DNA of 64,000 nt, from NCBI GenBank assembly GCA_050011535.1, contig JBEKIX010000003.1, forward strand, positions 37,976-101,975, written 5' to 3'. This document shows, piece after piece, positions 3,342 through 33,479 of the stretch (within the stretch, counting starts at the first letter, position 1; every line of letters begins with the position of its first letter). The notes under the pieces were generated by a model. It made no database searches and was not told the DNA's origin. It was given only the letters and a program-made list of their open reading frames with translations. Position numbers and translations under genes: made by a program. Source of the DNA: Acidobacteriota bacterium. Lineage in GTDB: Bacteria > Acidobacteriota > UBA6911.

Positions 3342-4679
3342 CTACCCTCCGGAGAGGGCTCCGAGGAAGTCGGCGTTACTCTTGGTCTTCGAGAGTTTTT
3401 CGAGCAGGAGTTCCATGCTCTCGGTGACGGAGAGCGGATTCAGAACTTTGCGCAGGATCCAGATCCGATTCAAATCTGTAGACGGAAGTAGCAGCTCTTC
3501 CTTGCGGGTGCCGGACTTATTGATGTCGATGGCAGGGAAGACACGACGGTCGACCAGCTTCCGGTCCAGATGCAGCTCCATGTTGCCCGTTCCCTTGAAT
3601 TCTTCAAATATGACGTCGTCCATGCGGCTACCGGTGTCGATCAGGGCAGTCGCGATGATGGTCAGGCTGCCGCCCTCTTCGATGTTGCGCGCCGCTCCAA
3701 AGAAGCGCTTGGGGCGCTGCAGAGCGTTACTGTCGACGCCGCCGGACAGCACCTTTCCGCTGGGAGGGACGATGGTGTTGTAGGCACGGGCGAGGCGCGT
3801 GATGCTGTCGAGCAGGATCACGACGTCGCGTTTGTGCTCAACGAAGCGCTTGGCCTTCTCGAGCACCATTTCCGCCACCTGAACATGGCGCGAGGCGGGC
3901 TCATCAAAGGTGGAACTGATCACCTCGCCTTTGACCGAACGCTGCATGTCGGTCACTTCTTCAGGGCGTTCATCGATCAGGAGCACGATGAGAACGACGT
4001 CGGGGTGATTCCTGGAAATCGAATTGGCGATTGACTGCAGCAGCATGGTTTTGCCGGTGCGTGGAGGGGAGACGATCAGGCCGCGCTGGCCTTTTCCTAC
4101 GGGCGCCAGCATGTCCATCACGCGTCCCGAGAGGTTGTCGGTCGAGGTCTCCAACTTGAACGCCTCATGCGGATAAAGCGGGGTCAGGTTATCGAAGAAA
4201 ATCTTGTCCTTGGCCGCATCGGGGTGCTCGAAATTCACGGCTTCGACCTTGATCAAGGCGAAGTATCGCTCACCGTCCTTGGGAGGCCGGATCTGGCCTG
4301 AAATCGTGTCTCCCGTTCTCAAGTCGAACTTGCGGATCTGGGAAGGGGAAACGTAGATGTCGTCCGGCCCCGGCAAGTAGTTGTAATCCGGGGCACGAAG
4401 GAAACCGAATCCCTCGGGCAGGCACTCCAGGACCCCTTCGGAGAAGATCAATCCGCTCTGCTCGGTCTGCGCCTTCAGGATCTGGAAAATCAGCTCCTGC
4501 TTGCGCATTCCGGTATAGCCGGGAACGTTAAGGTCCTTGGCTACCTGCGTCAGCGCGGAAATGTTCATCTCTTTCAGTTCGCGAATATTGAGATGGTCAT
4601 TTTCCTTTTCTTTCTCGCGGCCGTTTTCCCGGCCGTTGGCATTGTTGACATGATTGCGACGTTGCGTCGTCTCAGGCAT
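3342..4679 (-). CDS. rho: Transcription termination factor Rho
   Basis: 445-aa ORF. Rho N-terminal domain ([16 protein letters not shown]), RNA-binding region ([22 protein letters not shown]), Walker A PPRTGKT, and [24 protein letters not shown]. Confidence 0.95.
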
Positions 4680-19620: not shown

Positions 19621-20199
19621 ATGCAGACAGAACTTGCACCATCGACACCCGATCAGCTTGCCATGCCAGTGGAGCTGATTGAGCGCCGCATTTGCCTCAT
19701 TCGGGGTCAGAAGGTGATGCTTGACCGTGACCTCGCCCAGCTTTATGGAGTTGAAACTAAGGCGCTCAATCAGGCTGTGAAACGGAATCAAGACCGCTTC
19801 CCAGACGACTTTATGTTTCAGTTGACTGCCCAGGAGGCTAAACTTTTGAGGATCCATTTTGGCACCTCAAACTTGGAATCACAAAGTGGCGCCTCAAAAC
19901 CTGGTCGTGGCGGCCGGCGGTATCTTGCTTACGCTTTTACGGAGCAAGGCGTGGCCATGCTTTCAAGCGTTCTCAACAGCAAGCGCGCCGTCCAGGTCAA
20001 CATCGCCATCATGCGGACGTTTGTCAGACTGCGCGAACTTCTTGCCACGCACAAGGACTTAGCCCGCAAGCTTGCCGCCATGGAAGATAAGTACGACGCT
20101 CAGTTCAAGGTAGTCTTTGATGCAATCCGAAATCTCATGACACCGGCGCCCCTTCCTCCAAAACGGCAAATCGGATTTGCACCTCCCGAAGAAAAGTGA
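19621..20199 (+). CDS. ORF6N (KilA-N-related) domain DNA-binding protein, paralog 1
   Basis: 192-aa [89 protein letters not shown]. Confidence 0.85.
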
Positions 20200-20204
20200 T
20201 CCAA

Positions 20205-20233
20205 GTTTGAGGTCACAATTTGCGACCTCAAAC
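20205..20233. repeat. Free-standing copy of the ORF6N-internal palindrome, inside a decayed ORF6N remnant (~20203-20340)
   Basis: GTTTGAGGTCACAA-t-TTGCGACCTCAAAC (13/14 arm match), 5 nt after the stop of paralog 1. It translates as LRSQFATSN, the conserved ORF6N motif, but the flanking frame has no ORF6N continuation. Confidence 0.6.
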
Positions 20234-20349
20234 AGCAGTTTGGCCCTTTTGCGTACCTACGGGACGCTGGGAAAACAGCCCGGCACTTCAGTGCCGGGAT
20301 TCTGCATCAGGTTGCTGAATCAGCGCGTTCTGATCTAAGACTCTGCCCA

Positions 20350-20910
20350 ATGCCGAAGCAAGAATCTCAACACAGGTCATCCCACATTCTGATCCCCGTC
20401 GAAACTATCGCGGACGAGATTTATTTGATCCGCAGCCAGAAGGTTATGCTTGATGCTGATCTCGCCAAGCTCTACGGCGTCTCGACGAGGCGTCTCAATG
20501 AGCAGATCCGCCGCAACCGTGACCGTTTCCCTGAAGATTTTGCTTTTGTGCTCTCGTCGGAGGAGTTCGCAAACTTGATGTCGCAAAATGCGACATCAAG
20601 TTTGGGTTGGGGCGGGCGCCGCAAACTACCATACGCTTTTACTGAACACGGGGCGATCATGGCTGCGAATGTCCTTAGCAGTCCCATTGCCGTTGGCGCT
20701 AGCATCCAGGTCGTTCGTGCATTCGTCAGGCTTCGAGAGCTCCTGGCAACTCACAAGGATCTGGCCCGCAAACTCGAGGACTTGGAGCGGAAGTACTCTG
20801 CCCATGACGTCCGAATTCAAGAGATTTTTTCCTGCATCAAGAAGCTCATGACCCCGGCCTGCTCACGACGCCACCTGATTGGCTTTGTGGTTCCCAAAGG
20901 CAAGAAGTAG
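20350..20910 (+). CDS. ORF6N (KilA-N-related) domain DNA-binding protein, paralog 2
   Basis: 186-aa ORF. IRSQKVMLDADLAKLYGVSTRRLNEQIRRNRDRFPEDFAFVLS, GGRRKLPYAFTEHGAIMAANVLSSPIAV, and the C-terminal [15 protein letters not shown] shared with paralog 1. Confidence 0.85.
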   Translation: MPKQESQHRSSHILIPVETIADEIYLIRSQKVMLDADLAKLYGVSTRRLNEQIRRNRDRFPEDFAFVLSSEEFANLMSQNATSSLGWGGRRKLPYAFTEHGAIMAANVLSSPIAVGASIQVVRAFVRLRELLATHKDLARKLEDLERKYSAHDVRIQEIFSCIKKLMTPACSRRHLIGFVVPKGKK

Positions 20911-21056: not shown

Positions 21057-21563
21057 TCAGGGAGTTTCTTCGCCACCCGCAAGGACGCGCTTAGCCGATG
21101 CCACAGCTGAGGCGGCATCGGTAGTGATCTCGAGTATTGAAGAACTCATCGCCGCAAAAACGTGAACAACATCCTCGGGCTGGCAAACGAGGATTGCCGG
21201 TTGCTTGTACTTCAGCGCAAGAGCCAGCTCGGATGCGGTTCCGGCACTCATGCCAACGAAGAATAATACCTGGCTGGAAAGGACATTGATGTTGTTGCGC
21301 GCATCGTTCATGCCGGTAATGATCGGGATGTCGACCGCAGCCGACATTTCTTCATCATCTATTCCCGGAAGGATCCCGACAACCATGCCTTGTGCAGACT
21401 TGGCGCCGCGACTGGCAGCATCCATGACTCCGACTCGCCGCCCTCCCGTGACGAGGATCCAGCCCTGTTGCGCAATCAATCTACCAAGTTCATAGGCTAA
21501 GCGGATGTCATCGTCCGTAGCGCCCTCTCCGGGCCCCATCACCCCGACAAGCGTCTTGCTCAT
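21057..21563 (-). CDS. TIGR00725-type / LOG-SLOG superfamily Rossmann protein
   Basis: 168-aa ORF. VGVMGPGEGAT...GWILVTGGRRVGVMDAASRGAKSAQGMVVGILPG, then PIITGMNDARNNINV..., is the pattern of the TIGR00725/LOG-like family. Confidence 0.75.
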   Translation of the reverse strand: MSKTLVGVMGPGEGATDDDIRLAYELGRLIAQQGWILVTGGRRVGVMDAASRGAKSAQGMVVGILPGIDDEEMSAAVDIPIITGMNDARNNINVLSSQVLFFVGMSAGTASELALALKYKQPAILVCQPEDVVHVFAAMSSSILEITTDAASAVASAKRVLAGGEETP

Positions 21564-22190: not shown

Positions 22191-22267
22191 ATTGACAGCT
22201 CTGACCGACATTGCTATGCTCGCTTTGGATGTCGGAAATTCCGACTTTCAGAATTAACGGAGTTTTT

Positions 22268-22621
22268 ATGCCTCTTGTCAAAATGCAAAAGAAAGGCCAG
22301 CTTACCCTGCCCAGCCAAATCCGCAAGCGCCTAGGTTTGGCAGAAGGGGACTTTGTGGATGTGAAGATTCGCGCTGCTCATATTGTGGTTACTCCCCAAG
22401 TGGTGATCGACCGCTCAAAGTTTCCAACCGCTGACGATGAGTACACACCGGAGCAGCGGCGCATTATAGACGCGCGCTTGGCCAAGTCCGAGGAAGATCT
22501 CAAAAAGGGGCGCGTTTATGGTCCATTCGAGACTCATAAGGAGATGATGAAGTTTCTCCACAGCCAGACGAAGAAGGTCAAAGAGAAGGTTAAGACTAAG
22601 TTTCGGGGACAGGCGCCATAA
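22268..22621 (+). CDS. AbrB/MazE/SpoVT-type DNA-binding (antitoxin-like) protein, copy 1
   Basis: ATG at 22268. MPLVKMQKKGQLTLPSQIRKRLGLAEGDFVDVKI..HIVVTP is a SpoVT-AbrB swapped-hairpin motif. The last 7 codons and the stop lie inside the left arm of the 30-bp inverted repeat. Confidence 0.8.
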   Translation: MPLVKMQKKGQLTLPSQIRKRLGLAEGDFVDVKIRAAHIVVTPQVVIDRSKFPTADDEYTPEQRRIIDARLAKSEEDLKKGRVYGPFETHKEMMKFLHSQTKKVKEKVKTKFRGQAP

Positions 22622-22693
22622 CCTCGAAATATCACGGAAAGCATGTTCGTCGAATCGCAAGTAATTTCGAGGTTATGGCGCCTGTCCCCGAAA
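22601..22693. repeat. Perfect 30-bp inverted repeat with 33-nt spacer
   Basis: 22601-22630 TTTCGGGGACAGGCGCCATAACCTCGAAAT and 22664-22693 ATTTCGAGGTTATGGCGCCTGTCCCCGAAA are exact reverse complements. Confidence 0.95.
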
Positions 22694-22720
22694 TTCCCGC
22701 CCGATGAAAGCAGGCATACT

Positions 22721-23029
22721 ATGAGTGTCAGGATTACTCGATCCAACCGCAATGTCTTCCGTGACCTCGGATTCGATCTGGAAGAATCGGAGCACCTCAA
22801 GATCCGAGCGGATCTTATGATTCAGGTTCAGAAACAGATTGCGGCCGGTGGATACAGGCAGGCTGACGTGGCGAAGATGCTGAGCATAACCCAGCCTCGA
22901 GTGAGCGACCTTCTTCGCGGCCGGATCGACTTGTTCAGCACCGACACCCTGATCGACATGCTGGCGTGCCTGGGTGTCAGGGTGCGGCTAACGTTGAAAC
23001 CGACGCGCAGTGCCTGCAGAGTCGCGTGA
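22721..23029 (+). CDS. XRE-family HTH protein (HigA-like antitoxin type), no cognate toxin adjacent
   Basis: The ATG at 22721 gives 102 aa. NVFRDLGFDLEESEHLKIRADLMIQVQKQIAAGGYRQADVAKMLSITQPRVSDLLRGRIDLFSTDTLIDMLACLG matches the HTH_37-type antitoxin pattern. Confidence 0.8.
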   Translation: MSVRITRSNRNVFRDLGFDLEESEHLKIRADLMIQVQKQIAAGGYRQADVAKMLSITQPRVSDLLRGRIDLFSTDTLIDMLACLGVRVRLTLKPTRSACRVA

Positions 23030-23047
23030 TGGAAAGGCGGGAGATCT

Positions 23048-23075
23048 CGGGGACAGGCACCATAACCTCGAAATT
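23048..23075. repeat. Third copy of the 30-bp repeat arm (same orientation as the left arm)
   Basis: TCGGGGACAGGCACCATAACCTCGAAAT has 1 mismatch to 22603-22630 and is inverted relative to 22664-22693, so the XRE gene is bracketed by inverted copies. Confidence 0.9.
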
Positions 23076-23105
23076 CCGACTTTCAGAATTTACGGAGTTT
23101 TTTTT

Positions 23106-23530
23106 ATGGCTCTTGTCAAGATGCAAAAAAAGGCCAGCTTACCCTGCCCAGCCAAATCCGCAGCCGCTTAGATTTGCCGGAAGGGGATCTTGTGGACGTG
23201 AAGATTCGCGCTGCTCATATTGTGGTCACTCCCCAAGTGGTGATCGACCGCTCGAAGTTTCCAGCAGCTGACGACGAGTACACGCCCAAGCAGAGGCGCA
23301 TCATAGAAAGAGATTTGGACACCCACGAAGGGTGCGAAGTGAAAAGTGGGTGTCCAGGTCCTCCTCGGGCTGCTCAGAGGGCAATTCTCCGGGCCTGGTC
23401 GCCGAGGGTGCCGGAAATGCGTGGGGAAGGTCCGAGATGCTCAAAAACGTGTTGCGTCCGCTTTTTCCCTTTCGCGATCACCGAAGAAATGCGACGTAGA
23501 ATTATTTCTCGCTCTTCGTTGGCGTTATGA
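23106..23530 (+). pseudogene. AbrB/MazE-type gene, copy 2, frameshifted in an A7 homopolymer
   Basis: 23071-23305 is a roughly 88% identical (by eye) direct repeat of 22234-22468, including the 5' leader GAAATTCCGACTTTCAGAATT.ACGGAG. Copy 2 reads ATGCAAAAAAAGG versus ATGCAAAAGAAAGG, a 1-nt loss that leads to an in-frame TAG. The rest of the domain continues in the frame of ORF 23174..23530. Confidence 0.6.
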
Positions 23531-24269
23531 AGAGAAGCCTGCCAAGAGCCCCTACCACCTGCCCATCATCGCGGGTGATCGGCTTAAATCTCCATCTTCT
23601 GGCTGCCGCGAGGATCGCGTCAGCCGATATCCCTTCTTTAAATTCGCCATCTAGCCCGGCGCACAGCACCTTCCCGTTTTTATCAATCATGATCGCAACA
23701 TTTATGCAATACCCTTGCGGCGTATTGGGGGGCCATTTGGGAAAAACCTTTCGAACTGCACGCTGTTCCAATTCACTATGATTTAGGTAGAGCTGCGGGC
23801 CAGGCATCTCCTTGACAATATCGACATTCTTCAAGCACGGCAACGGAGCGAATAACGGAGGACCAAAGCTGTCACAATAGGTGCCTGGAGCGAAGCAGTC
23901 CATGTTACCGATAACTATCCTGCCGACATTTACCTCATGATCCTGGATGATGGTTATTCTTAATGCCCTCTGGGGGAAACCCTGGACCGTTACTATGAGA
24001 AGGTAATCGCCCTTAGGTAAACCGCTGATCCGTAGTATCCCATCCTTTGACGACTCGCCATGAAATGCGGCCGTTGTCGCAGGAATCGGCGTTAGCAGAA
24101 CAGTAGCGCCTTCTATAGGTTTTCCAAAGAGGTCCACAATCACCGCTCGGAGCGCACCGATTGATTGACACATCGCACCATTTGATTGTCCCCAAGACAT
24201 CATTACGGCAAAACATATCAGCTGCAAGATGGCTTTGAGGTAATGAAGCCGAGATAACGACAGTCTCAT
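23502..24269 (-). CDS. Secreted protein with carboxypeptidase-regulatory-like and TonB-C-like domains (candidate partner of the orphan Rhs-CT)
   Basis: The ATG at 24269 (MRLSLSRLHYLKAILQLICFAVMMSWG) gives a signal peptide. GKPIEGATVLL..SKDGILRISGLPKGDYLLIV is CarboxypepD_reg-like. PKWPPNTPQGYCINVAIMIDKNGKV...AILAAARRWRFKP is TonB_C-like. Starts 17 nt after the orphan toxin stop. Confidence 0.6.
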   Translation of the reverse strand: MRLSLSRLHYLKAILQLICFAVMMSWGQSNGAMCQSIGALRAVIVDLFGKPIEGATVLLTPIPATTAAFHGESSKDGILRISGLPKGDYLLIVTVQGFPQRALRITIIQDHEVNVGRIVIGNMDCFAPGTYCDSFGPPLFAPLPCLKNVDIVKEMPGPQLYLNHSELEQRAVRKVFPKWPPNTPQGYCINVAIMIDKNGKVLCAGLDGEFKEGISADAILAAARRWRFKPITRDDGQVVGALGRLLFITPTKSEK

Positions 24270-24285
24270 GATCAATCTCCTATGC

Positions 24286-25017
24286 CTAATGACTAAAACA
24301 ATTCTCAAAAATAGCCTTGTTATTCGCTTTCTCATTGTCATCGTGGTTTGGGTCATACTGGCCATCGTCTAGAAGGGCGCCGGTTATGTGACCCAGCTCG
24401 TGCAAAATAACAAAAGCCTGAAAGGCAAGGGGGTTATTTCCTCCAAATAATTGTGTCAAGTCCTGGCCATTGGCATTAGTTGGGTTAAAGAAATCTCCGT
24501 ACGCATTGATCGACACTTGTTGAGTGAAGGGATTCACATCTGCCTGCGTACCATTTGGAGCAGTCAATGGCAGGTAAAAGAAGGTCGTTGCATTGAGGGC
24601 TTTAGTTGGGTCAATGCCTTTCGAACCTAGGAGTTTCCCACAGTCCCCGGTTAATAAACTTAACCCCAGATTGAAAGCGTTATAGAACTGGGATTGCTGA
24701 TCGGATGTGACGTTGGCCCCAACCAAAAAGCCCTTGAACGGATTTACTGATCTTGGCGATGGCAGCGGCCCACCGGCCCCTCCCTGCGGTTCGTCTACGC
24801 CACCTCCGACGTATCCGAACGGTCCTTCTCCTTCAGCTGCTGGGTTCCAACCATAGATATCGAAATAATATGTTGTCGTCACGACCATCCATGTAGTCTT
24901 CCCAAGCGTGCCCCCTGCCAAACCGGCAGTAACTTCCTCGTAACTTATCGAAACAGACACGTACTCATCATCTCTGCCGTCCAGATCAATCCTATTTACC
25001 GGATCGTTTCTGACCTA
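24286..25017 (-). CDS. Orphan (displaced) Rhs C-terminal toxin cassette with HExxH metallopeptidase motif
   Basis: ORF 24286..24960 (GTG). Directly upstream and in frame is VRNDPVNRIDLDGRDDEY, preceded by a TAG at 25015-25017. This matches the core-end motif YVRNDPVNLVDPDGRE of the main Rhs gene. Further upstream, AYDETAAGI resembles YYDSRTIGI of the main gene. HELGH lies at 24388-24402. Confidence 0.65.
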
Positions 25018-25169
25018 AACAACGATCCCCGCCGCGGTTTCGTCGTAAGCATGCCCGCATCCCGGCCGCAGGTTTCGGCTTAGCTCGCCCTCGAGCCCGA
25101 TGCAAGGTGGTATTTTCAGGTTGATCCCCTGACGCGAGTTTTCCGTTAACGCTTCGGTCGTAGCCATGG

Positions 25170-25214
25170 GTTTTTCTTTAGCTGCCGGCGGCTATTGTGG
25201 CAGCTAAAAAGAAC
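25170..25214. repeat. Palindromic intergenic repeat, family B, copy 1
   Basis: GTTTTTCTTTAGCTGCC-ggcggctattgt-GGCAGCTAAAAAGAAC. Lies between the DUF2442 stop and the orphan Rhs-CT. Confidence 0.8.
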
Positions 25215-25267
25215 GGCAGATGAGCTTGTTTTCCATTTTGCCGATGGAATCCGAAGGGCGTGGCGGC

Positions 25268-25504
25268 TCAGTCGTGTTTTTTGAGAAGGCCGTTGACCGA
25301 TAGGTCTTCATCAATCAGTGGCCAGTGGATCCCGTAGCCACCGGGTGACAGCTCCGCAACCAGCCGCTCCTGCTCTGATGCGGCAGCCAGCGTATTGGAG
25401 CATTCTTCCCACGGAATCCGCAGGCGGCGCTGGCCAAGCACCAGAATCAGCGCGTCCGGGGTCACTTCGATGCCGGTAGCTGTGATCGGCTCAGTTGCTT
25501 GCAT
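25268..25504 (-). CDS. DUF2442 domain protein
   Basis: ATG at 25504. VTPDALILVLGQRRLRIPWEE...GGYGIHWPLIDEDLSVNGLL matches the DUF2442 pattern. Overlaps the upstream DUF4160 gene by 14 nt. Confidence 0.8.
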   Translation of the reverse strand: MQATEPITATGIEVTPDALILVLGQRRLRIPWEECSNTLAAASEQERLVAELSPGGYGIHWPLIDEDLSVNGLLKKHD

Positions 25505-25757
25505 TTCCTTTGTCCCCAAAACTCTTCTCCCATTCTCCCACAATCAAGTCAAAGTGGTCAAAAATGATCTTGCGCGCTTCCCGGCGCAGGCGCGGCGTCA
25601 GGTTATAGGACCATGCCTCCTCGATCTCATAGAGGTCGGGCCGCAGCCAGTACTTGCATTCGGTTTCCGCCTTGCGCGCGTGGATGTGAATCGGTTCATC
25701 GCCTTCGTTGGCGTAGAAGAAGAACCGCCATCCCTGAATCAGAAGTATCGTCGGCAT
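25491..25757 (-). CDS. DUF4160 domain protein
   Basis: 88-aa ORF. GWRFFFYANEGDEPIHIHARKAETECKYWL is the typical DUF4160 signature. Confidence 0.8.
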   Translation of the reverse strand: MPTILLIQGWRFFFYANEGDEPIHIHARKAETECKYWLRPDLYEIEEAWSYNLTPRLRREARKIIFDHFDLIVGEWEKSFGDKGNASN

Positions 25758-25779
25758 GCGGCTCGGTCCCCCCGTGCGC

Positions 25780-25827
25780 GTTTATTCTTTAGCCGCCGAC
25801 GGCCATTGTAGCAGCTAAAGAGGAAAC
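25780..25827. repeat. Palindromic intergenic repeat, family B, copy 2
   Basis: GTTTATTCTTTAGCCGCC-gacggccattgta-GCAGCTAAAGAGGAAAC. Arms GTTTATTCTTTAGC / GCTAAAGAGGAAAC match 12/14. Lies between DUF4926 and DUF4160. Confidence 0.8.
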
Positions 25828-25856
25828 CGTTGAAGTCGTTTTGCGACTGAGTGCGT

Positions 25857-26075
25857 TCAGGCCGTCTCGGCCGGTTCGTAATGCAGGACCAGCAGCTGGC
25901 TTGCCTGCAGCGCCAGGCCGGCAAAGGCGCGACCGTCGTTGTCCGTGAACTCGATCTCAAACACCTCGGGAGCCAATTCCTGGACGACGGTTCCGACCTG
26001 CCCGCGCCGCAGCTTGCGCTCACGCAGGGCCTCGATCAATGCCACGACATCAAGAAGTTTGATCCCCGCACTCAT
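25857..26075 (-). CDS. DUF4926 domain protein
   Basis: ATG at 26075. VVALIEALRERKLRRGQVGTVVQELAPEVFEIEFTDNDGRAFA matches the DUF4926 pattern. Confidence 0.75.
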   Translation of the reverse strand: MSAGIKLLDVVALIEALRERKLRRGQVGTVVQELAPEVFEIEFTDNDGRAFAGLALQASQLLVLHYEPAETA

Positions 26076-26089
26076 GATATTGACACCCT

Positions 26090-26119
26090 CGCCGCTATTG
26101 TAGCAGCTAAAGAAGAAAC
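26090..26119. repeat. Family B repeat, copy 3 (right half only)
   Basis: CGCCGCTATTGTAGCAGCTAAAGAAGAAAC, 15 nt upstream of the DUF4926 start. The left arm is absent. Confidence 0.7.
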
Positions 26120-26197
26120 CAGATCCGTTTTGGAACGCTGTTTCATTCTTCCTCTTCGTCATCGGCCCGATCGGGCGAAGAGAGCGGATCCTCGGGG

Positions 26198-26948
26198 AAA
26201 ATGGCGACGCTACCTATTTTGGCTTGACCTTCCTCGGCCGGCCAAGTGGTCTTGCCTCCAGTCTTCGGCCCAGCCTGGACTCCAGCTTGGCAATAAACTG
26301 CTTGCTGCCAATCGGCCGTCCAGTGCGCGTGCAGAGTCTGAGCCTGAGCAGCATCTTGTCATCTTCCTTTTCCGCAAGCCACGCAGCCCAGTCCTCAGCC
26401 CCTGGCGACCTTCGCTCCGGCAGTGGCGCCAGAACCGGATCGATGCGCCCGCCGCAATGAGCCGCGGCGCTGCTCCACGGGTAATGCTCTGCCTTCCGCA
26501 CCAGCCTTGCCCGTACGGGATTCCGTTCCACATACCGCATCGCCGCCCACAGATGCTCTTCATCCAGCGGGCAGGAATAATAACGCCCTTGCCACAAACG
26601 GCCGCTTATTCCCTGAACCCAATTGACGTGCTGGGCATAGCGCAGGTCCACAGGCTTAAACACGCGGGCGAGGGAATCGGCCCGAGCCGGCACACTGACA
26701 AAGTGGACATGGTCGGTCATCAGACAATAGGCCAGCGTTGCCAGGCCATGCTTGGCCGAGTATTCGAGGAGGAGCTGAAGATAGCGCTGACGGTCACCAT
26801 CGTCGAAGAACACATCTTCACGGCGATTGCCCCGTTGCGTCAGATGGTGAGGAAGTCCGGGCACAACGACCCTTGCCATTCGCGGCATGAGCTCATGGTA
26901 GCTACGCCACGCCCAATGTCAAGATAAATAGGGTAGCGTCCCCTATTT
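26198..26948 (-). mobile_element. RAYT gene flanked by inverted hairpins (REPtron-like unit)
   Basis: 26926-26948 is AAATAGGG-tagcgtc-CCCTATTT, 38 nt upstream of the start. 26198-26220 is AAAATGGC-gacgcta-CCTATTTT, the same hairpin in inverted orientation, overlapping the stop codon. Confidence 0.6.
26214..26888 (-). CDS. IS200-like / REP-associated tyrosine transposase (RAYT, HUH Y1 family)
   Basis: 224-aa ORF. HHLTQRGNRREDVFFDDGDR, HUH motif MTDHVHFV, catalytic-Tyr region GRLWQGRYYSCPLD, and YVERNPVRARLV. Confidence 0.85.
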   Translation of the reverse strand: MPRMARVVVPGLPHHLTQRGNRREDVFFDDGDRQRYLQLLLEYSAKHGLATLAYCLMTDHVHFVSVPARADSLARVFKPVDLRYAQHVNWVQGISGRLWQGRYYSCPLDEEHLWAAMRYVERNPVRARLVRKAEHYPWSSAAAHCGGRIDPVLAPLPERRSPGAEDWAAWLAEKEDDKMLLRLRLCTRTGRPIGSKQFIAKLESRLGRRLEARPLGRPRKVKPK

Positions 26949-26984
26949 TCCTATTTTCCAGTCATGTGGGGACACCGCTACCTT

Positions 26985-28094
26985 CTATCTCTGGACTCTT
27001 GACAGGACGTCGATCTGTTCCCAGTGGCAGCCCCTGTCCACTGAACGCATTAACCCTTTGTATGTTCCGACAAATAACACATTCGGTTGGGTGGGCACGA
27101 TTACGATGCTATGGACGGAACGTGCCTTAGTTATTCCGGTGTTTATGAGGATGCACCAAGTCTCCCCGCCATTCTCAGTACGCAAAATACCTTTGCTGGT
27201 GGCCACATAGACGCGATTCACATCAACCGGATCGATCGCAATACCCTCAACTTCAGTAGGCCATTCATCGAACAGCTTGGCGATGGCCTTCGTCTCTGCG
27301 GCCATTGTGCGAACGCGTGTCTTGCGGATCAAGTCATTCTGGCCGACAAGGTCCCAAATTTTTCCACCATCCACGCTCTTGAGAAGGCTGCCCATGGAGC
27401 CGGCGCCGTACATCACAGCCGGGTTTGATTGGCTGATTGCCAGCGTGTCAATGCCACCCGACGCGTACATGAACCTGAACGTATCTCCGCCATCGACAGA
27501 AACGAACATTCCCCCTCCATATTGCCAGCCCGGCAGGTCGCCAGCGATATAAAAGGTTAGCGGATCACGGGGGTGATAAAAAATGAGCCCCCCTTGCACC
27601 ATTCTCGTTCCGTAGCCCAAAAGGGCTTCTTTCATTCGTGTCCAGCTCTTTCCACCATCAGTCGATCTCTCGTCGTATGACTTCCTCTCGCGAAAAGAAA
27701 TCGTCCTATATTTGACCGAAGCATCGGCAGGATTTGGGGTCCACGGCAGAATTTCACCTTCTCTAAGAGGCTGAGTCTGCCAAGAACGAAGGTGCTCATA
27801 GAAGTTGTCAACACGCCATGTATCTCCTCCGTCTGCAGAATAGAGGAAGGCCCTCTTGTGGTCGCGATCGCCAACGGTCGCGACAACTGCTTTGTGATCC
27901 GACCTCAATTCCACGTCAACTCGGCCCGTCTCCAACTCGTCGGGAACCGGTGGCTCATCAAGAACTCGGTCAGCTCGAAGGTTTTCGCAGCAACCTTCGG
28001 TCGCTGGGGGCTGGCGCCCCCCACATGAAGGGACGAAGGATGAAACGACCAGGAAGTATATTAGGCGGCTTGATTTACCCACAAAGCTTCTCAC
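26985..28094 (-). CDS. BNR/Asp-box repeat beta-propeller lipoprotein
   Basis: 369-aa ORF with GTG start. Lipobox-like VPSCGG after a hydrophobic N-terminus. Repeated SxDxGxTW boxes: SADGGDTWRV, STDGGKSWTR, VSVDGGDTFRF, KSVDGGKIWDL, TENGGETWCI and SVDRGCHWEQ. Starts 42 nt after the Rhs stop. Confidence 0.75.
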   Translation of the reverse strand: MRSFVGKSSRLIYFLVVSSFVPSCGGRQPPATEGCCENLRADRVLDEPPVPDELETGRVDVELRSDHKAVVATVGDRDHKRAFLYSADGGDTWRVDNFYEHLRSWQTQPLREGEILPWTPNPADASVKYRTISFRERKSYDERSTDGGKSWTRMKEALLGYGTRMVQGGLIFYHPRDPLTFYIAGDLPGWQYGGGMFVSVDGGDTFRFMYASGGIDTLAISQSNPAVMYGAGSMGSLLKSVDGGKIWDLVGQNDLIRKTRVRTMAAETKAIAKLFDEWPTEVEGIAIDPVDVNRVYVATSKGILRTENGGETWCILINTGITKARSVHSIVIVPTQPNVLFVGTYKGLMRSVDRGCHWEQIDVLSRVQR

Positions 28095-28136
28095 GATACT
28101 TAGCTCCGTATTTGCCCGAGGCTGTGCGCGTTGAGG

Positions 28137-31100
28137 TTATATTCCCCCACCACAGTTCCGTCCAAACATCTGCTTGTTGAACCACGAACTGCCGCCACCT
28201 TGGTAGGGAGTCCCATCTGCAGCGGAAGTAGCGGGCATGAGGTGATCATCATCTATTCGGGCGTTGTTCCCGCTCATGAGCAAGTGAAAGCCCTCATGAA
28301 GTAACGTTGAGATGTAATCATTGCCGACGGATTCAGTGGGGTCAGAGGCGATGTTGATGGTATTCCCGTTTGTCTGCGCATTTGCTCCGAGCGCTGCTAC
28401 AGTAGTGGGAATCTTGGTAGCAGCCATGACGTTGTCGATCAAACTTTGAACCGTGAAATTGGCAGCGAGTAAGCCCTTATTATTCAACTGATTGATGACC
28501 TTCACCAGAAAGTCGTAGCAATCGCCTTTCCTCTCCGCAATACCGGTTCGCGAACTTAGGTCGGATTGGAGTAGGGCTTTGTTTGCGAGAAGTGCCTGCA
28601 AGCTTTGGGAAGCAGCGGGTTCGCCGCCGTCGTCTCCGCTATCAATCCCGCCTCCGCGGATCGGCGCGTGAATCAAGTTCTCAAGCATCATTCCCGACAA
28701 GTCTGCAATGACTGAGCCCACGTCGAAGCTTGTGTTGAAGAGATCCGGCTCCCAATAAGGCGCCCAGGTAGTTGGACCATGTATCGTAAAGGGTTCTCTG
28801 CCATCCGGATCAACGAGATTCACCGGGTCGTTTCTGACGTAGGTGTATTTGTTCAGCGAAGGGGGATCGTAGATCCGTGATGTCACCGAATCGGCCGAGA
28901 TCCATCGCATGGAACTGATTCCTATCGTCCTACTGTCATAGTACCTGGCGCCGTAGTAGTCCAGGTCCCCGCTTCGCTCCTTGCCCTGGAACATCAGCCG
29001 TGTGGGCGAGGAATTGCCGGTATGGCCGAATGGCTCGTACACGTACTCCCCTGACCACGTCGTCCAGTTGCCTTGGGATTGCCAGTTGTAAACCGACAGC
29101 GACACCGTCACAACCCAGCGCGTCGATCCGAGATGGTCCTTGAACAAAAATAGGACACTATCGTCCTGTTGATGGATCGCCACGACCTGGCCGTTGAAGT
29201 AAATGTAGTTGTTCGATGCTGATTCCGTGATCCGATCCTCCGTAAGCAGCTGGCCCGTGTACGAATACACATAGTTTACCACGTTTCCGTCGTTGGTGCG
29301 GAACCGCCGACCGTTGCCGTCGTACACGTAGCTCGCGCCCTGCGAGGTCAGGATGAGCCGGTTCTCGGCGTCGAAGGTCCCCATCGTCGTCATGTTCCCG
29401 GCCGCGTCGTACGCGAAGCTCTCGTTGCCCCCATACCAGGTTCTGCTCGTCAGCCGGTTGGTCGAGGCGGCCACCGTAAACGTGTCTATCCCCACCGACG
29501 CAACGTTGTTGTAGAGGTCGTACCCGAACGGTATCTTCGAACTGTCGTCGTCCCGGTCACGCGACTGCCAGTAGCCGGTCAGACGGTGCCACAGATCGTA
29601 CTCGTAGTGCTGGCTTTGGTTCAAGTTAACCCAATCCGTGATGTCTTGAATCAGCGGCCCCTCAAATGGCACGTAATTGTAATCGAAATTCAGCTCAAAG
29701 GATTCCATGTGCGTCAGGTACCCCGAGTCCGGTGCGTACGTGTAGAGCGTCTGGACCCTCTGCCCTCCATAGTAGAGGATCGGGTACTGTACTTGCGTCA
29801 GCTGCCCGGCCGGACCGCCGTAGGTAGCGGAGTAAATGTAATCGAAGGGCTGGTTGTTGTACGTTGACGACACCTTCGTCTGCCGTCCGTTGTCATCCAG
29901 CGTATAGGTAACGATCTTGCCGTTGGGATATGTGAGAGTGGTGAGCTGCCCCGCTAAGTTGTAAGCGTAGTTGGTAATATAGGTTCGAGGTGTGCCATCG
30001 TTAATGACAGTGGCCTCTTCGGTGATCGAGGAGCAGCTGCAGTAGGCGTAGTAGCTGCTCACCGTGATCCCCGAAACCGTTCTTGTCACGCCCGTCAGGC
30101 GTCCCACGGGATTGACCGTGGCGATCGGGCTCCCCGAAGGCTGCGTGTCGTAATAGTAGGTGACCGAAGGCGTGCCGTCGCTGTAACTTTTCTGCGTCAC
30201 CCTGTTCAGCTCGTCGTAGCTAATCGTCGTCAGGATCCCGCGCGCGTTCGTCTTGCTGACCATGTTCGAGTTCGCGTCGTAGCTGTAGCTCGTCGTGCCG
30301 CTCTCTGGGTGCGTCTCCGTAAGGAGCCGGCCGAGGTTATCGTAGGTAAACGACCTCGTCTGAATTCCCTGGCTTATGGCGGTCAGCCTGCCCATGGCGT
30401 CGTAGGAGTAGTACGTGTTGACATTGAGCTCGGCGGTGCTCGGATTCTGCACGGTCACCGCCCACACTTTGTGATCTTCTTGATACCAATAGTCACGAAC
30501 GCCGCCGCTGGACGAATTCACCATTGTCACGCCGGGATAATTTGTGTACGACACCGTGGTCCCATCGGCGTAGGTTGCGTATTCATACGACGGAGACTGG
30601 CCGTGATAGTTGGTTTGATAGATAGTCTGAGATCCCGAACGATACGGCGCCGAGATCTGTGAGACCGCGCCGCGCGCGTCGTAGTGCAGATCCTGTTGAA
30701 TGTTGCCGCTAGAGGAATCCGTCAGCGTTTGCGTCGACAGCCGGCCCATTTCGTCGAGGTCTGATCGCTCCTCGGTATAGGTATTGGCCGTCAGGTATTG
30801 CCTCACTGTGGCGTAGGGAGGGTGTCCGTAATACGGATCCTGGACGTAAGTGATGGTCTTATGGGCGCCGCTTGTCTTGCTGATATCCGTCGGGCGGTCG
30901 AGGCTGTCATAGGTTGTGGTCGTGACCATGCTGTTCGGGTCTGTTTGGGTGAGGACGGCGCCGCTTTTGTAGCTGTATGTAGCGCTGCTGACGTGTCCCT
31001 TGGCATTGGTCATCCGCAAAGGGAAGGCATAGGCGTTGTCAGCCGAGGTTAGCCAGTAGTCCGTGTAGGTCGTGTAGGACCGGGGATCGGTCACCTGCCG

Positions 31101-33377
31101 GGGATTTCCAAACTCGTCGTATCGGGTCGAGGCTACGACGGACAAGTTCTGGGCGATGTTGTACCATCGGCTGACGCTCGTCGGCAATCCTCTTGTCAGA
31201 TAGCTCGTGCCAAAGGAAGTATCGTGCCGGGTTGCGTTGGCGCTCGACGAAACCAGAGTGGTGGAATCGTAGGCCGTGCTCGTTTTTGATATCAGGTTGC
31301 TGGAGCCGTCGTAGATCAGCGTGTCGGTGACCCGATCCAGGATGTTCAGCGACACGTAGGAACCGCTGGATTCGTGAGCGTAATTGAGATCGGTCCTGCG
31401 GCGCAACGTGCCGCTGTACGAATACTCCCTGATCTCCTTTAGGTTCCCGCTGTAGTCACTGCTCGAAGCGTAGGTGAACTCTTTGCGCACAACGGTCTGC
31501 GATTGCGGATTCTGCGCGTCTGTGTTCACCTGCTTAATCCAACTCACCCTGGGGTTTTCGATGGTCGAGAGTTGGGTGTCGTCCTGGGTCCAGTCCTGCT
31601 GCGATTCGGGAGTGAACCCCGGCCAGGGGGAATCCGCATATTTTGTGTCGATAACAAAGCCATCGGCCCAGGCCGAGCCGGACTTGCCCATCAGATAGGA
31701 ATAGTATGTCTGCTGTGATCCCTGAATCGTCACCGTGGTGGTGCTTGCGGCTGCGGCCCCGTTGGGGTTGCCGTACCAGGTCCAGGTCGGCGTGTAATCC
31801 CCACGGTCGTGGGACGACACATAATGGTCAGGGACCGTTTGATTCAGCAAACGCTCAAGAACCGTTAAGGTTTGATAAAAATAGCGACTGGTCGCGAATG
31901 TCGGGTACGTTATCTGGCTTACCTCTCCACTGCCGCCATACGTGAACGTATATCTTAGGCCAGTGATGTATGTCACTTGTGTCAAGAGCTCCTGCGTCGG
32001 GATGGATGCTGTCGCGGCGCCGGAACCAAAACTGATCGATTGGCCCTGGTACTCAAGACTGATCGTACTCGTCGCCTGGGTCGTGTCATTGGTGTTGAAG
32101 TATGAAATATACGCTAGCCGCCCCTGTGAGTTCAGCAGGAACGTGTAGGTGTTCCCGAGCGTGTCCTGGATCGTGTTGATTCGTCCGCCATTGTCGGCGT
32201 AGGTGATGTCAAGGTAGTTGCCGTTTGCGTCTTGAACCCGCGTCGCATAGCGGATGTTGGTGTGGATGGTGTCTTGATAGCCGAAGCTCAAGTTCGTGCC
32301 ACCCTTCAAGGTAAGTTTGTGGGCGACGGGATCGTAAATCATGTAGGTCGAATCCATCGAACGCCAAGCCCCTCCGTAATAGGTCAGTTCATGATTGGAT
32401 CCGTCCGATAGAGTGATGTAATAGCGGCCGTTGGCCGAGTCGTCGATCACCCTTCCGACCAGAAGCGTCCATCCTGTCCCGACCCAGGAACTGTCTTCAA
32501 CCAATGTGGCGTATATCGTCGCGTTATACGTGTAGAAATCCCAGATCTTGGAATTGTAGGCGAGCTTCAGATCGATGCCGAGCCCTGCGCGTCCAGGTCG
32601 GCTCACGAGCGGCACGGTAAAGAAGAGGTTACCGTTGGCCACATTGACGGTTTCGTTGTCTGCCTTGGTATACGGGAAGAATGGAGGCGTGCCCTTCTCG
32701 TGCCGTACTGAGTAGCGGTGACCGTTCATGGATAGCGGCATGTCAATCCCAACCGTTGTGCTCGCTTGAGCCGAATAACCGGAATTATATGCAATCAGCG
32801 TGTACGTGGTCGTCGTGCTCGGGCTCACAACCATGCTGCCGGAAACGGACACAGCCGTGCCATTGATGGTCGCGCTGGAGGCGTTCGATGTGGACCAGTA
32901 CAGAGTCGTTGAACCTGGCAAGGCATAATGGCTGGGACTCGAGTAGAAATAATTAATGGAGGGTCCGGAGATGTTTAGGGTTGCCGACGTGGTTCCGGCC
33001 GCAAAGGAGCAATCACCATCCCAACCGAGATAGTGTGTCGCCTGAAGACTCCAGGTTCCAAAGGCCATCGATTGGTATCTGTCTACACCGGTATATCCGC
33101 CGCCCGACCAGCAGCCTGAGTTGAGATTGATGGGATTACCGACCGGAGGTGTGAGCGCAGCACTGACTGCCGCACTGTCGTATTCTGCGTCCCCAGGCAT
33201 GTTTGTCCAAGATTGGGCATAGACCACTGAGGACCAAAGGAGCTGCAGGCTCGATCCAAAATCATAGGTGTCCTGATAGTAATATTCATCGGGGTAGCTT
33301 GCCTTTAACATAAACGATAGCAAGCAAAACAAGCATAAGACAGCACCCCAAATGAGCTTCGCTGATTTCGTCTCCAT
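28137..33377 (-). CDS. Rhs/YD-repeat polymorphic toxin with Sec-type signal and C-terminal HExxH metallopeptidase-like domain
   Basis: About 1746 aa from the ATG at 33377 (GAGGCGGA upstream; alternatives at 33395 and 33410). Signal-like METKSAKLIWGAVLCLFCLLSFML. Dozens of YD repeats (YDANGNY.., YDELNRV.., YDNLGRL.., YDAMGRL..). Core end ARYYDSRT..YVRNDPVNLVDPDGRE at ~28794-28850. The 218-aa C-terminal domain has HEGFH at 28284-28298. Confidence 0.9.
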   Translation of the reverse strand: METKSAKLIWGAVLCLFCLLSFMLKASYPDEYYYQDTYDFGSSLQLLWSSVVYAQSWTNMPGDAEYDSAAVSAALTPPVGNPINLNSGCWSGGGYTGVDRYQSMAFGTWSLQATHYLGWDGDCSFAAGTTSATLNISGPSINYFYSSPSHYALPGSTTLYWSTSNASSATINGTAVSVSGSMVVSPSTTTTYTLIAYNSGYSAQASTTVGIDMPLSMNGHRYSVRHEKGTPPFFPYTKADNETVNVANGNLFFTVPLVSRPGRAGLGIDLKLAYNSKIWDFYTYNATIYATLVEDSSWVGTGWTLLVGRVIDDSANGRYYITLSDGSNHELTYYGGAWRSMDSTYMIYDPVAHKLTLKGGTNLSFGYQDTIHTNIRYATRVQDANGNYLDITYADNGGRINTIQDTLGNTYTFLLNSQGRLAYISYFNTNDTTQATSTISLEYQGQSISFGSGAATASIPTQELLTQVTYITGLRYTFTYGGSGEVSQITYPTFATSRYFYQTLTVLERLLNQTVPDHYVSSHDRGDYTPTWTWYGNPNGAAAASTTTVTIQGSQQTYYSYLMGKSGSAWADGFVIDTKYADSPWPGFTPESQQDWTQDDTQLSTIENPRVSWIKQVNTDAQNPQSQTVVRKEFTYASSSDYSGNLKEIREYSYSGTLRRRTDLNYAHESSGSYVSLNILDRVTDTLIYDGSSNLISKTSTAYDSTTLVSSSANATRHDTSFGTSYLTRGLPTSVSRWYNIAQNLSVVASTRYDEFGNPRQVTDPRSYTTYTDYWLTSADNAYAFPLRMTNAKGHVSSATYSYKSGAVLTQTDPNSMVTTTTYDSLDRPTDISKTSGAHKTITYVQDPYYGHPPYATVRQYLTANTYTEERSDLDEMGRLSTQTLTDSSSGNIQQDLHYDARGAVSQISAPYRSGSQTIYQTNYHGQSPSYEYATYADGTTVSYTNYPGVTMVNSSSGGVRDYWYQEDHKVWAVTVQNPSTAELNVNTYYSYDAMGRLTAISQGIQTRSFTYDNLGRLLTETHPESGTTSYSYDANSNMVSKTNARGILTTISYDELNRVTQKSYSDGTPSVTYYYDTQPSGSPIATVNPVGRLTGVTRTVSGITVSSYYAYCSCSSITEEATVINDGTPRTYITNYAYNLAGQLTTLTYPNGKIVTYTLDDNGRQTKVSSTYNNQPFDYIYSATYGGPAGQLTQVQYPILYYGGQRVQTLYTYAPDSGYLTHMESFELNFDYNYVPFEGPLIQDITDWVNLNQSQHYEYDLWHRLTGYWQSRDRDDDSSKIPFGYDLYNNVASVGIDTFTVAASTNRLTSRTWYGGNESFAYDAAGNMTTMGTFDAENRLILTSQGASYVYDGNGRRFRTNDGNVVNYVYSYTGQLLTEDRITESASNNYIYFNGQVVAIHQQDDSVLFLFKDHLGSTRWVVTVSLSVYNWQSQGNWTTWSGEYVYEPFGHTGNSSPTRLMFQGKERSGDLDYYGARYYDSRTIGISSMRWISADSVTSRIYDPPSLNKYTYVRNDPVNLVDPDGREPFTIHGPTTWAPYWEPDLFNTSFDVGSVIADLSGMMLENLIHAPIRGGGIDSGDDGGEPAASQSLQALLANKALLQSDLSSRTGIAERKGDCYDFLVKVINQLNNKGLLAANFTVQSLIDNVMAATKIPTTVAALGANAQTNGNTINIASDPTESVGNDYISTLLHEGFHLLMSGNNARIDDDHLMPATSAADGTPYQGGGSSWFNKQMFGRNCGGGI

Positions 33378-33479
33378 CGATCCGCCTCTATTCATTTGAA
33401 TCCTCCTCACAAATGCGCATCACGAGTGACTTCTGACCCGCAACTTGCCGCTCAAGACAGCCGAGATGGCCGGCCATTT

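Follow-up and report, generated by a model that had tools for sequence, protein, structure and literature searches.

What is a second Rhs C-terminal tip, with a secreted neighbour of its own, doing behind a full-length Rhs gene? We have addressed this question in a 64-kb stretch of DNA (the window, to which all coordinates refer) from a Terriglobia (Acidobacteriota) bacterium of peat soil, in which the main Rhs gene, the orphan cassette and the partner gene are all encoded on the minus strand. From the end of the main gene at 28137 it is ∼3.1 kb along the same strand to 25014, where the core-end motif preceding the orphan tip starts. We consider it likely that 23502-25240 is an orphan-type Rhs toxin/immunity cassette, consisting of a conserved head, a linker and zincin-like toxin domain, a spacer with a ribosome-binding site and an exported immunity partner. 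An earlier sequence-only reading had proposed an orphan Rhs C-terminal cassette ∼3 kb behind the full-length gene; this proposal is supported, and the positions assigned to the parts of the cassette are all correct on the minus strand (Table 1).

The orphan tip follows a second copy of the Rhs core-end motif

In profile scans the main Rhs protein matches RHS_repeat (E 2.7e-21) and the Rhs-associated core model TIGR03696 Rhs_assc_core (E 1.8e-15), and its core terminates in YVRNDPVNLVDPDGRE, also read as ...KYTYVRNDPVNLVDPDGRE. A six-frame regular-expression search finds this motif at only two places in the 64 kb, the main Rhs gene and the orphan; the copy described in the sequence-only reading as in frame and cut off by the TAG at 25015-25017 is therefore a unique second copy. 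When the whole 1757-aa Rhs protein was compared with the rest of the window by tblastn, the orphan motif was the top match (11/15 identical, E 0.10), the two core ends reading VRNDPVNRIDLDGR and VRNDPVNLVDPDGR. At the nucleotide level the homology that had been proposed is real but short, a repeat of 47 nt at 81% (24971-25017 and 28795-28841, spacing 3824 nt) in which the longest unbroken identity is 11 nt (GTCAGAAACGA). Across the heads described below, differences in the motif segment are distributed over the three codon positions as 0.117/0.114/0.47, a third-position excess over the 15 motif codons, and by this sequence criterion the segment evolves as coding sequence.

A core-like remnant upstream of the TAG was sought with tblastn and blastn and none was recovered; a conserved non-core head lies there instead. 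Recoding of TAG was considered and rejected, as TAG also ends the tip reading frame itself (24286-24288) and the cassettes of two other loci (L010/L012).

The predicted zincin-like tip belongs to a family found on full-length Rhs proteins

The different domain of ∼220 aa with HELGH at 24388-24402, to which the sequence-only reading had drawn attention, is present as a 224-aa open reading frame (ORF) containing a 152-aa zincin-like domain, and the identical 224-aa protein is called on three JGI peat contigs. Scans of Pfam (at E ≤ 0.1), NCBIfam and PADLOC place the tip in no curated family, and a word-indexed protein search returned only the tip itself. An exhaustive HMMER search recovered 30 proteins at E ≤ 1e-3, including the tip and two low-complexity matches; the family is sparse, comprising ∼28 distant relatives aligned over their last ∼150 residues, and has no Pfam model. 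In the family alignment (A2, 27 sequences) H115, E116, H119 and C149 are invariant, Cys occupies position 35 in 20 of the 21 sequences covering it, and Asp or Glu is found at position 127 in 23/27. The family signature reads [ST]hxIN..G.FF, AFhLLHELGHxTG....D and NN..I...C.

An AlphaFold2 (AF2) model of the domain, built on A2, reached a pLDDT of 92.3 and a pTM of 0.89 and is composed of an N-terminal helix, a three-stranded sheet, the HExxH helix (105-121) and a C-terminal helix. The leading Foldseek matches in PDB and BFVD are mostly zincins, namely selecase, deuterolysin (TMq 0.51), AsaP1, IrrE and SprT; fold and profile matches are weak throughout, and extend to M91 and reprolysin. PDB searches with the single sequence and with a profile gave insignificant matches to HExxH helices only. 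The 27 relatives show sub-threshold matches to Peptidase_M91, Reprolysin_5 and M64, with M91 appearing in 6/27 (best E 2.5e-4). On the model, the tip is a zincin-like domain family without a curated model; D/E127, an Asp eight residues after the second His, is probably the third zinc ligand, and the tip is a putative zinc metallopeptidase toxin whose activity is predicted from the modelled fold and the conserved residues.

Between motif and toxin domain, a short beta-strand-like segment (xVTVTA; VSVSIS in the window, 24940-24960) leads into a Gly/Pro-rich linker. The segment past DPxG is common to many unrelated tips (L010, L013, L015, P0003, P0004, P0020) and may be a pre-toxin element of this Rhs clade.

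The domain family also forms the C-terminus of YD/Rhs proteins elsewhere (P0020/L005, P0018/L022, P0016 and P0011/L025), in which YD repeats and a complete core end stand before the domain (P0020, ...NRYTYALNDPIDLVDPSGQ; P0018; P0016, ...NRYVYVRDNPVGIVDPAGM; P0011, ...NRYAYVGNDPVNFNDVSGE); P0020 carries a TEN_YD-shell together with its YD repeats. The possibility, raised in the sequence-only reading, that the family never occurs as an Rhs tip is contradicted by these four proteins. Family members are found behind Rhs genes as well. At locus L006 the order is an Rhs gene with another tip, a signal-peptide protein, an orphan composed of a long core fragment and a HELGH-family domain, and a second signal-peptide protein; at L025 an Rhs end with a HELAH variant is followed by a TonB_C protein, an orphan with a HELGH-family domain, and a protein with CarboxypepD_reg and TonB_C.

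These arrangements bear on the idea that the locus encodes no toxin module at all, but a metallopeptidase of ordinary secreted or housekeeping type and a periplasmic accessory protein, the likeness of the motif being fortuitous. The idea is hardly credible. It would account for the lack of a curated toxin family match and for the modest E-value of the motif (0.10), but the same domain family follows the motif in many independent proteins with YD repeats and full core ends, the tip itself lacks a signal peptide, Rhs-immunity-orphan-immunity arrays contain homologues (L006, L025), and in ten aligned heads the motif is present and its substitutions are of coding type.

An exported partner accompanies the tip

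The partner gene starts 16 nt behind the tip stop codon, not 17 nt as first counted, and the same 16-nt gap is seen at L004 and L025. Its N-terminus is Sec-signal-like on inspection and its CarboxypepD_reg domain (PF13620; E 6.2e-8) scores 33.3 bits against a Pfam cut-off of 32.3. Both features agree with the sequence-only reading; the TonB_C-like end that it also named is sub-threshold here, and its support comes from homologous partners. Among these is the 233-aa partner at L025, which over 203 residues is 31% identical (E 8e-30) and shares the two-domain build, with a CarboxypepD_reg match of its own and a faint TonB_C match. The L004 partner begins in the same way as that of the window, the L005 partner is a 157-aa lipoprotein with a weak TonB_C match, and at L007, where the toxin is deleted, the motif runs directly into a TonB_C protein (E 3.4e-9). 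TonB_C is therefore clear in L007 and in a 142-aa protein of L025, weak in L005, in the window and in the 233-aa L025 partner, and not detected in the partners at L006, L022 and L023.

Partners of the tip family bear signal peptides or lipoprotein boxes, and by sequence comparison a TonB_C-type exported protein is a recurring companion of the family. The proposed pairing of the tip with an exported partner of its own is borne out by this conserved association, and the comparison supports an orphan Rhs tip with a cognate exported partner. We infer that the partner is the cognate immunity protein and works in the periplasm. The toxin would act outside the cytoplasm and be neutralised by the partner in the periplasm, because the partner is exported, the tip family has a conserved Cys pair, and a sister cassette (L008) carries a lysozyme tip.

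A conserved head and a TAG/TAC codon precede the tip

The cassette is preceded by a head of ∼250 nt, in which a hairpin/TGnTAnAAT element is followed by an ATG, a leader of 50 codons and the core-end motif YVRNDPVNxxDPDGR. Its relation to intact genes is seen in protein P0004 (contig L004), which begins MATASQLSENSRQG...GCGHAYDETAVEIAVYVRNDPVNLVDPDGRK and corresponds to the window leader ORF read on through a Tyr codon, TAC, in place of the TAG of the window. The two are homologous in nucleotide sequence from ∼45 nt upstream of the ATG to DPDGR, and the tips are only ∼29% identical over the domain. A scan with the leader located 12 metagenome loci and, among species-representative genomes, one Terriglobia metagenome-assembled genome (MAG; L019), with leaders 72–82% identical in amino acids. 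Heads are present in at least 13 other loci with unrelated tips and precede at least seven different tip types, including Phage_lysozyme at L008 (E 1e-28), a HEGFH tip with a BNR-like protein at L015, and tips of unknown type at L010/L012, L013, L019 and L011, the last shorter and possibly truncated. The L015 tip and its BNR partner belong to the families of the main tip of the window and of the protein encoded at 26985..28094. As this HEGFH module is carried on a full-length Rhs in the window and behind a head in L015, the same toxin/immunity module occurs in both settings.

At codon 51, seven other heads read TAC and one reads AAC; the window and L007 (3003-3005) read TAG. The window and L007 heads have TAG at the identical codon despite different downstream content. 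Substitutions in the leader are flat over codon positions (0.142/0.145/0.176), with a median dN/dS (nonsynonymous to synonymous substitution ratio) of 0.49, and the motif is carried by ten aligned heads. Because the substitutions are flat, the amino-acid sequence of the leader is, by this comparison, not what is conserved. AYDETAAGI in the leader, taken at first as an echo of YYDSRTIGI in the main gene, resembles it no more than chance would allow, is missed by tblastn and blastn, and on the substitution pattern is not a relic of it. About half of the heads are damaged, by TAG in the window and L007, by stops in L016 and L017, by reduction to a 75-aa stump in L014 and by a partial second head in L019. 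At L018 the frame stays open despite a frame change in the leader and runs into a canonical core end, SGKERDVESGLDYFLARYY....

The element at the front of the head is an inverted repeat with 9-bp arms, TTAGCTGCY-N12-RGCRGCTAA. In its 12 aligned copies 95% of cells pair, with two compensatory pairs, but 27/500 shuffles equal this value, which is modest support for a conserved hairpin. The left arm and loop contain TGnTA(A/C)AAT, in which the TG, A2 and T6 positions are invariant, suggesting an extended -10 promoter, although a simple two-hexamer promoter scan did not flag the site. A pattern search for the hairpin with TGnTACAAT gave three matches in the window against 0.01 expected. Three consecutive units, DUF4926, DUF4160/DUF2442 and the toxin cassette, are each preceded by the element, and DUF4160/DUF2442 is bracketed by the copies hp2 and hp1 as if it were a cassette itself.

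Other identities for the hairpin were considered and rejected. An intrinsic terminator is excluded by the lack of a T-run after it. A repetitive extragenic palindromic (REP) element of the neighbouring RAYT transposase is contradicted by the occurrence of two full copies and one half copy in 64 kb, all before cassette units, and by the presence of the element without a RAYT gene in L019. In an integron gene cassette reading, the hairpin would lie on the wrong side, as it stands 5' of the units and overlaps the -10-like motif, and there is no integrase in this part of the window. An Rfam scan of 23300-26300 found nothing credible. Tyrosine recombinase genes, assigned by eye, adjoin heads only in L014 and L015. 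Large primase-like genes (CHC2 zinc-finger N-terminus) and putative tyrosine-recombinase/integrase genes lie upstream of the heads, again by eye, at L014 749-4821 and at L015 1145-5187 and 9607-12150; in L015 two such primase/integrase elements flank the cassette, and a copy of the hairpin element stands ∼110 nt after an integrase gene.

A head of this kind could instead serve as a portable promoter and start codon for a self-expressed small toxin gene encoding a short leader-motif-tip protein, the window copy having been inactivated recently or still yielding the 224-aa product by re-initiation at the GTG at 24960. We give this account a real, though minor, chance. In six heads (L004, L008, L010/L012, L013, L015, L019) the frame starting at the ATG is open across the motif and on into a tip of full size, the L018 ORF is open even after its frame change, and TGnTA(A/C)AAT, invariant at its key positions, is found in all heads and before three consecutive units of the window. 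Gene callers predict the GTG-started ORF on three independent contigs, and in Salmonella a conserved internal promoter and a non-canonical start drive more than 50 Rhs tips (PMC7043789). Nevertheless, neither the leader ATG nor the GTG at 24960 is preceded by a Shine-Dalgarno sequence, the promoter scan passed over the head element, and roughly every second head is truncated or broken. A third-position excess is lacking in the leader, whose amino-acid sequence is thus not under selection. Furthermore, neither a signal peptide nor any known trafficking domain is present in the leader product, whereas the partner of the cassette is exported and one sister tip is a lysozyme; a product made in the cytoplasm would neither harm its producer nor reach a target.

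Replacement boundaries and metagenome evidence

The MAG locus L019 is syntenic with the window and defines where tips have been exchanged. Its Rhs is 67% identical in amino acids and 72% in nucleotides up to YVRNDPVN.IDP.G; the homology stops at 28801, and the L019 main tip and immunity gene differ from those of the window. The block from DUF4926 through DUF4160 and DUF2442 to the head is 88% identical in nucleotides (26196-24995) and stops inside the motif, past which L019 has another tip, of 301 aa and intact from its ATG, and another partner. Homology resumes beyond the cassettes, in the right flank listed in Table 1. G+C content is 44.5–52% in the cassette, compared with 55–58% around it. 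The idea of tip replacement by recombination at the motif thus holds insofar as relatives' tips are replaced exactly at the motif boundary (28801; ∼24995), while a cassette ready for use by the resident gene is conjectural. In L019 the main tip (1000-1700) and the head-cassette tip (3600-4344) are, by eye, apparent divergent paralogues sharing the pattern C..F..YGEY.GT...ILT.MY.E.G...NRW, a pairing which parallels that of HEGFH and HELGH in the window.

The locus is identical in 24 peat/wetland runs and on three JGI contigs; a search for RNA runs containing the region returned none. Sequencing depth of the orphan contig against the Rhs contig was 14.8/29.2, 33.7/50.2, 7.9/14.3 and 11.7/12.1 in four runs, the orphan being lower in three. 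In the Logan assemblies the orphan contig covers 23133-25546 and the Rhs contig 25521-30000, and they part at a node of 34 nt that also belongs to a contig with a paralogous DUF4160 copy (3086 nt; 20 mismatches in 252 nt). Co-existing strains may differ downstream of 25517. The L008 lysozyme cassette is absent from the four peat metagenomes.

These data also bear on whether the cassette is a dead remnant, a decaying pseudogene with a non-functional tip and partner whose head is conserved by recent descent or gene conversion. The nonsense codon at head codon 51, the broken or truncated heads of L007, L011, L014, L016, L017 and the second head of L019, and the neutral appearance of leader substitutions would all follow from it. 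Even so, it is quite improbable. Both ORFs are intact past the TAG (224 and 255 codons) with H115, E116, H119 and C149 in place, the partner has retained both its ribosome-binding site and 31% identity over 203 aa to the L025 counterpart, the sequence is identical in the 24 runs and three JGI contigs, and the head block shared with L019, at 88% nucleotide identity, exceeds the 72% of the Rhs core.

The main tip and neighbouring genes

The main tip is related to the head-borne tip of L015 (E 1e-5) and to a fragment at L007, and in an alignment of the three sequences (A7) HEGFH and a C-terminal Cys are invariant. Homologues of the BNR/Sortilin-like protein at 26985..28094 come after HEGFH-type tips at L015 (E 3e-42) and L007 (E 2e-33), and on this association the protein is probably the immunity protein of the main tip. 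It also shows a weak match to Tli3, an immunity family of type VI secretion systems (T6SS; E 0.0014). The main tip matches no peptidase family in a Pfam scan, and two hhalign comparisons of the HEGFH and HELGH tips gave no significant relation (E 0.11; E 0.0096 with a probability of 4%); a single family containing both tips was accordingly rejected as unproven. The "two-tip metallopeptidase arsenal" of the sequence-only reading is likewise unproven, since the main tip, for all its conserved HEGFH, could be related neither to the orphan tip nor to a peptidase family.

That reading had also taken the array to be interrupted or assembled by mobile DNA. As far as the RAYT gene is concerned this appears correct; at the syntenic L019 locus the gene is missing, ∼200 nt lie between the immunity gene and DUF4926, and because of this absence the RAYT gene is, on sequence comparison, a lineage-specific insertion. 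The DUF4926-DUF4160-DUF2442 genes, by contrast, are conserved parts of the locus (88% nt against L019). DUF4926 also stands directly before heads in L009, L015 and L017, and the DUF4160/DUF2442 pair recurs in L008 at 95% and 89% aa identity, followed there by the head with the lysozyme tip.

Further downstream, the region 22211-23307 is partly duplicated. The 5' end of a MazE-like gene (22235-22470) recurs at 23070-23307, 835–838 nt downstream, as 183 nt at 89% plus two short repeats at 90–97%, with an HTH_37 gene (22643-23029) between the copies. Perfect 30-nt inverted repeats occupy 22601-22630 and 22664-22693; a third such arm is found at 23044-23075. Just downstream of the locus come a tandem pair of ORF6N-domain genes and a gene of SLOG cluster4 (19621-20910 and 21057-21563), which are also present on JGI contig L001.

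Table 1. Features of the Rhs locus and the orphan cassette, in order of reading along the minus strand
Feature	Coordinates	Strand	Description
Full-length Rhs gene	28137..33410	-	1757 aa; N-terminal signal/anchor-like segment, YD repeats, Rhs-associated core, variable tip
Main-gene core-end motif copy	28795..28841	-	YVRNDPVNLVDPDGR; direct repeat D3, 81% vs 24971-25017
Main tip	28140..28799	-	∼220 aa, HEGFH; no known family (no Pfam, NCBIfam or PADLOC match)
BNR/Sortilin-like beta-propeller protein	26985..28094	-	Lipoprotein-like N-terminal signal; Sortilin-Vps10 E 8.8e-10, BNR E 2.3e-8
RAYT-type Y1 transposase gene	26214..26888	-	Y1_Tnp E 1.9e-10
DUF4926 gene	25857..26162	-	PF16277 E 6.4e-21; likely start ATG ∼26075
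hp3, half copy of cassette-front element	26094..26120	-	Repeat family D2; 27 nt upstream of likely DUF4926 start
hp2, second full hairpin/TGnTACAAT copy	25789..25818	-	Before DUF4160; alignment A6
DUF4160 and DUF2442 genes	25268..25757	-	Overlapping pair, DUF4160 25491..25757 (PF13711 E 3.7e-15), DUF2442 25268..25543 (PF10387 E 2.6e-10)
Non-coding head front	25168..25240	-	hp1 hairpin 25178-25207, 9 bp, TTAGCTGCC-N12-GGCAGCTAA, enclosing TGCCACAAT, extended -10-like
50-codon leader	25018..25167	-	ATG 25165-25167; MATTEALTENSRQG...GCGHAYDETAAGIVV
In-frame TAG	25015..25017	-	Head codon 51, between leader and motif/tip
Rhs core-end motif remnant	24961..25014	-	VRNDPVNRIDLDGRDDEY, in frame after TAG
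Orphan tip ORF	24286..24960	-	GTG start, 224 aa; first ∼72 aa beta-rich then Gly/Pro-rich linker, then putative toxin domain
Zincin-like domain (predicted)	24289..24744	-	152 aa; HELGH 24388-24402; family alignment A2, AF2 model
Spacer	24270..24285	-	16 nt, AGGAG 7 nt before partner ATG
Partner gene	23502..24269	-	255 aa; CarboxypepD_reg aa 41-114 (23928-24149), TonB_C-like aa ∼185-236 (23562-23717)
Right flank shared with L019	23361..23449	-	Beyond each locus's own cassette; blastn 78%, 89 nt

Discussion

We propose that the window keeps, behind the main gene, an Rhs tip/immunity cassette in reserve. Toxin. The toxin would be a periplasm-acting zincin-like peptidase whose frame is closed by the TAG just before the motif. 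The tip cannot be translated from the head ATG because codon 51 is TAG rather than TAC, and, as no ribosome-binding site precedes the GTG at 24960 and TAG serves as a normal stop elsewhere in the cassette, the most likely outcome is no toxin or only a trace of it. Partner. The partner, with its own AGGAG, would still be made and would protect against the same toxin fired by neighbours. Exchange. Cassettes would be exchanged between genomes by recombination at two boundaries, the head and motif on the left and the conserved flank on the right. Since tip/immunity modules occur both on full-length Rhs proteins and behind heads, the cassette appears to belong to a common pool of Rhs tips. Were the two copies of the 47-nt motif repeat to cross over, the tip would become fused to the core of the resident Rhs and the TAG would stay behind; this should be rare because at most 11 bases in a row are identical.

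Several observations weigh against this account. For the toxin, the Foldseek matches to zincins are not significant (best E 0.07, TM-scores of 0.3–0.5, TM at most 0.51) and no curated peptidase family in Pfam is matched by the tip. For the partner, the TonB_C-like end scores 15.7 bits against a cut-off of 27.1 (TIGR01352, E 0.015), and the single-sequence AF2 model is too poor (pLDDT 49) for use in a fold search. For silence, the GTG at 24960 could permit some translation of the tip, and for the head, a leader without coding signature and damage to about half of the copies could mean that heads are decaying relics. For recombination, minimal efficient processing segments for RecA are ∼25 bp, and the 47-nt homology to the resident Rhs, with no more than 11 identical positions in a row, is far below what efficient exchange by RecA needs. 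Variants in which the core is fused to the orphan tip, which the sequence-only reading had suggested looking for, were absent from the contigs of four peat metagenomes; no joint from ∼28800 to ∼24970 is present in the Logan contigs, and contigs hide rare variants.

The closest counterparts are the orphan rhs-CT/rhsI modules of Enterobacteria (Poole et al. 2011, PMC3150448; Koskiniemi et al. 2014, PMC3967940), of which recombination of an orphan in Salmonella is the closest experimental precedent (PMC3967940). As in those modules, the cassette follows a full-length rhs gene on the same strand, keeps a core-end motif of the PxxxxDPxGL type and has a variable toxin tip with its own immunity gene close behind; the tip family is found on full-length Rhs proteins as well, G+C content is lower, and there are neither YD repeats upstream nor a delivery region of its own, the TAG closing the frame, although the ATG-started leader of relatives is atypical. 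In contrast, core homology is here limited to 15 codons (the 47 nt at 81%) with no long core fragment, and a conserved non-core head with its own ATG, common to unrelated tips, takes its place, the frame being closed by TAG. The main gene has a Sec-type N-terminus in place of PAAR/VgrG-linked features, with no T6SS context seen; the phylum is Acidobacteriota; and no recombination with the main gene was seen in contigs of the four metagenomes.

In Salmonella, main and orphan rhs genes contain an internal promoter, P2, and a translation start upstream of PxxxxDPxGL (Starsta et al. 2020, PMC7043789). The head resembles P2 in being a short conserved sequence just upstream of the core-end motif of many tips which potentially provides both transcription and a start codon. 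P2, however, lies inside the Rhs core coding sequence and has been tested experimentally, whereas the head is a separate non-core block, on orphan cassettes only, and known from its sequence. The Salmonella toxins are moreover cytoplasmic and toxin-antitoxin-like; here the partner is exported, which makes a toxin-antitoxin-like role unlikely.

Zincin-like domains of polymorphic toxins have been described as Tox-MPTase1-5 and the HopH1/NleD Peptidase_M91 family (Zhang et al. 2012, PMC3482391), and M91 is carried by an Rhs of Salmonella Dublin (PMC13556075). The window tip shares with them a small alpha+beta HExxH domain of ∼150 aa, a C-terminal position on RHS-repeat proteins and the same general fold class, but it matches none of their Pfam models at E ≤ 0.1 and has its own signature and conserved Cys pair. 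It also has a recognisable exported candidate immunity partner, while Zhang et al. list no immunity family for Tox-MPTase1-5 (PMC3482391). The best structural neighbours are minigluzincins and aspzincins (selecase 4qhj, deuterolysin 1eb6, AsaP1 2x3c), with which the model shares the three-stranded sheet, the HExxH helix and the C-terminal helix; TM-scores of 0.3–0.5 and E ≥ 0.07 indicate resemblance, not membership. The third ligand, in those proteins a Glu or Asp on the following helix, is here probably the Asp eight residues after the second His.

A bolder and rather unlikely extension of the proposed cassette would make the head the junction unit of a Terriglobia cassette platform, acting as promoter or operator and exchange site in an integron-like supply of Rhs tips, and would make the TonB_C/CarboxypepD_reg partners substrate decoys for a toxin that cuts TonB-type transducers or TonB-dependent transporters in the target periplasm. 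The platform idea arises because the same element stands before every unit of the small array and unrelated tips and immunity genes are shuffled behind it, in some cases beside primase/tyrosine-recombinase elements (L014, L015), and the decoy idea because the TonB_C (and CarboxypepD_reg) build is constant in immunity proteins of the zincin family.

In kind, the cassette is ordinary, orphan Rhs tips being well known in Enterobacteria; few descriptions exist for Acidobacteriota, a dominant phylum of soils that is poorly cultured. New are the phylum, an unclassified family of zincin-like tips whose exported partner is of the TonB_C type, the non-core head and the recurrent TAG/TAC codon. A zincin-like family without a curated model gains a confident structure model and a recognisable exported candidate immunity partner, and clear left and right boundaries of tip/immunity replacement are available between related genomes. 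The TAG/TAC polymorphism at a single head codon could be a simple on/off state for spare toxins. Should the TonB_C partner prove to be a substrate mimic, TonB-dependent uptake would be indicated as a target of interbacterial warfare in soils.

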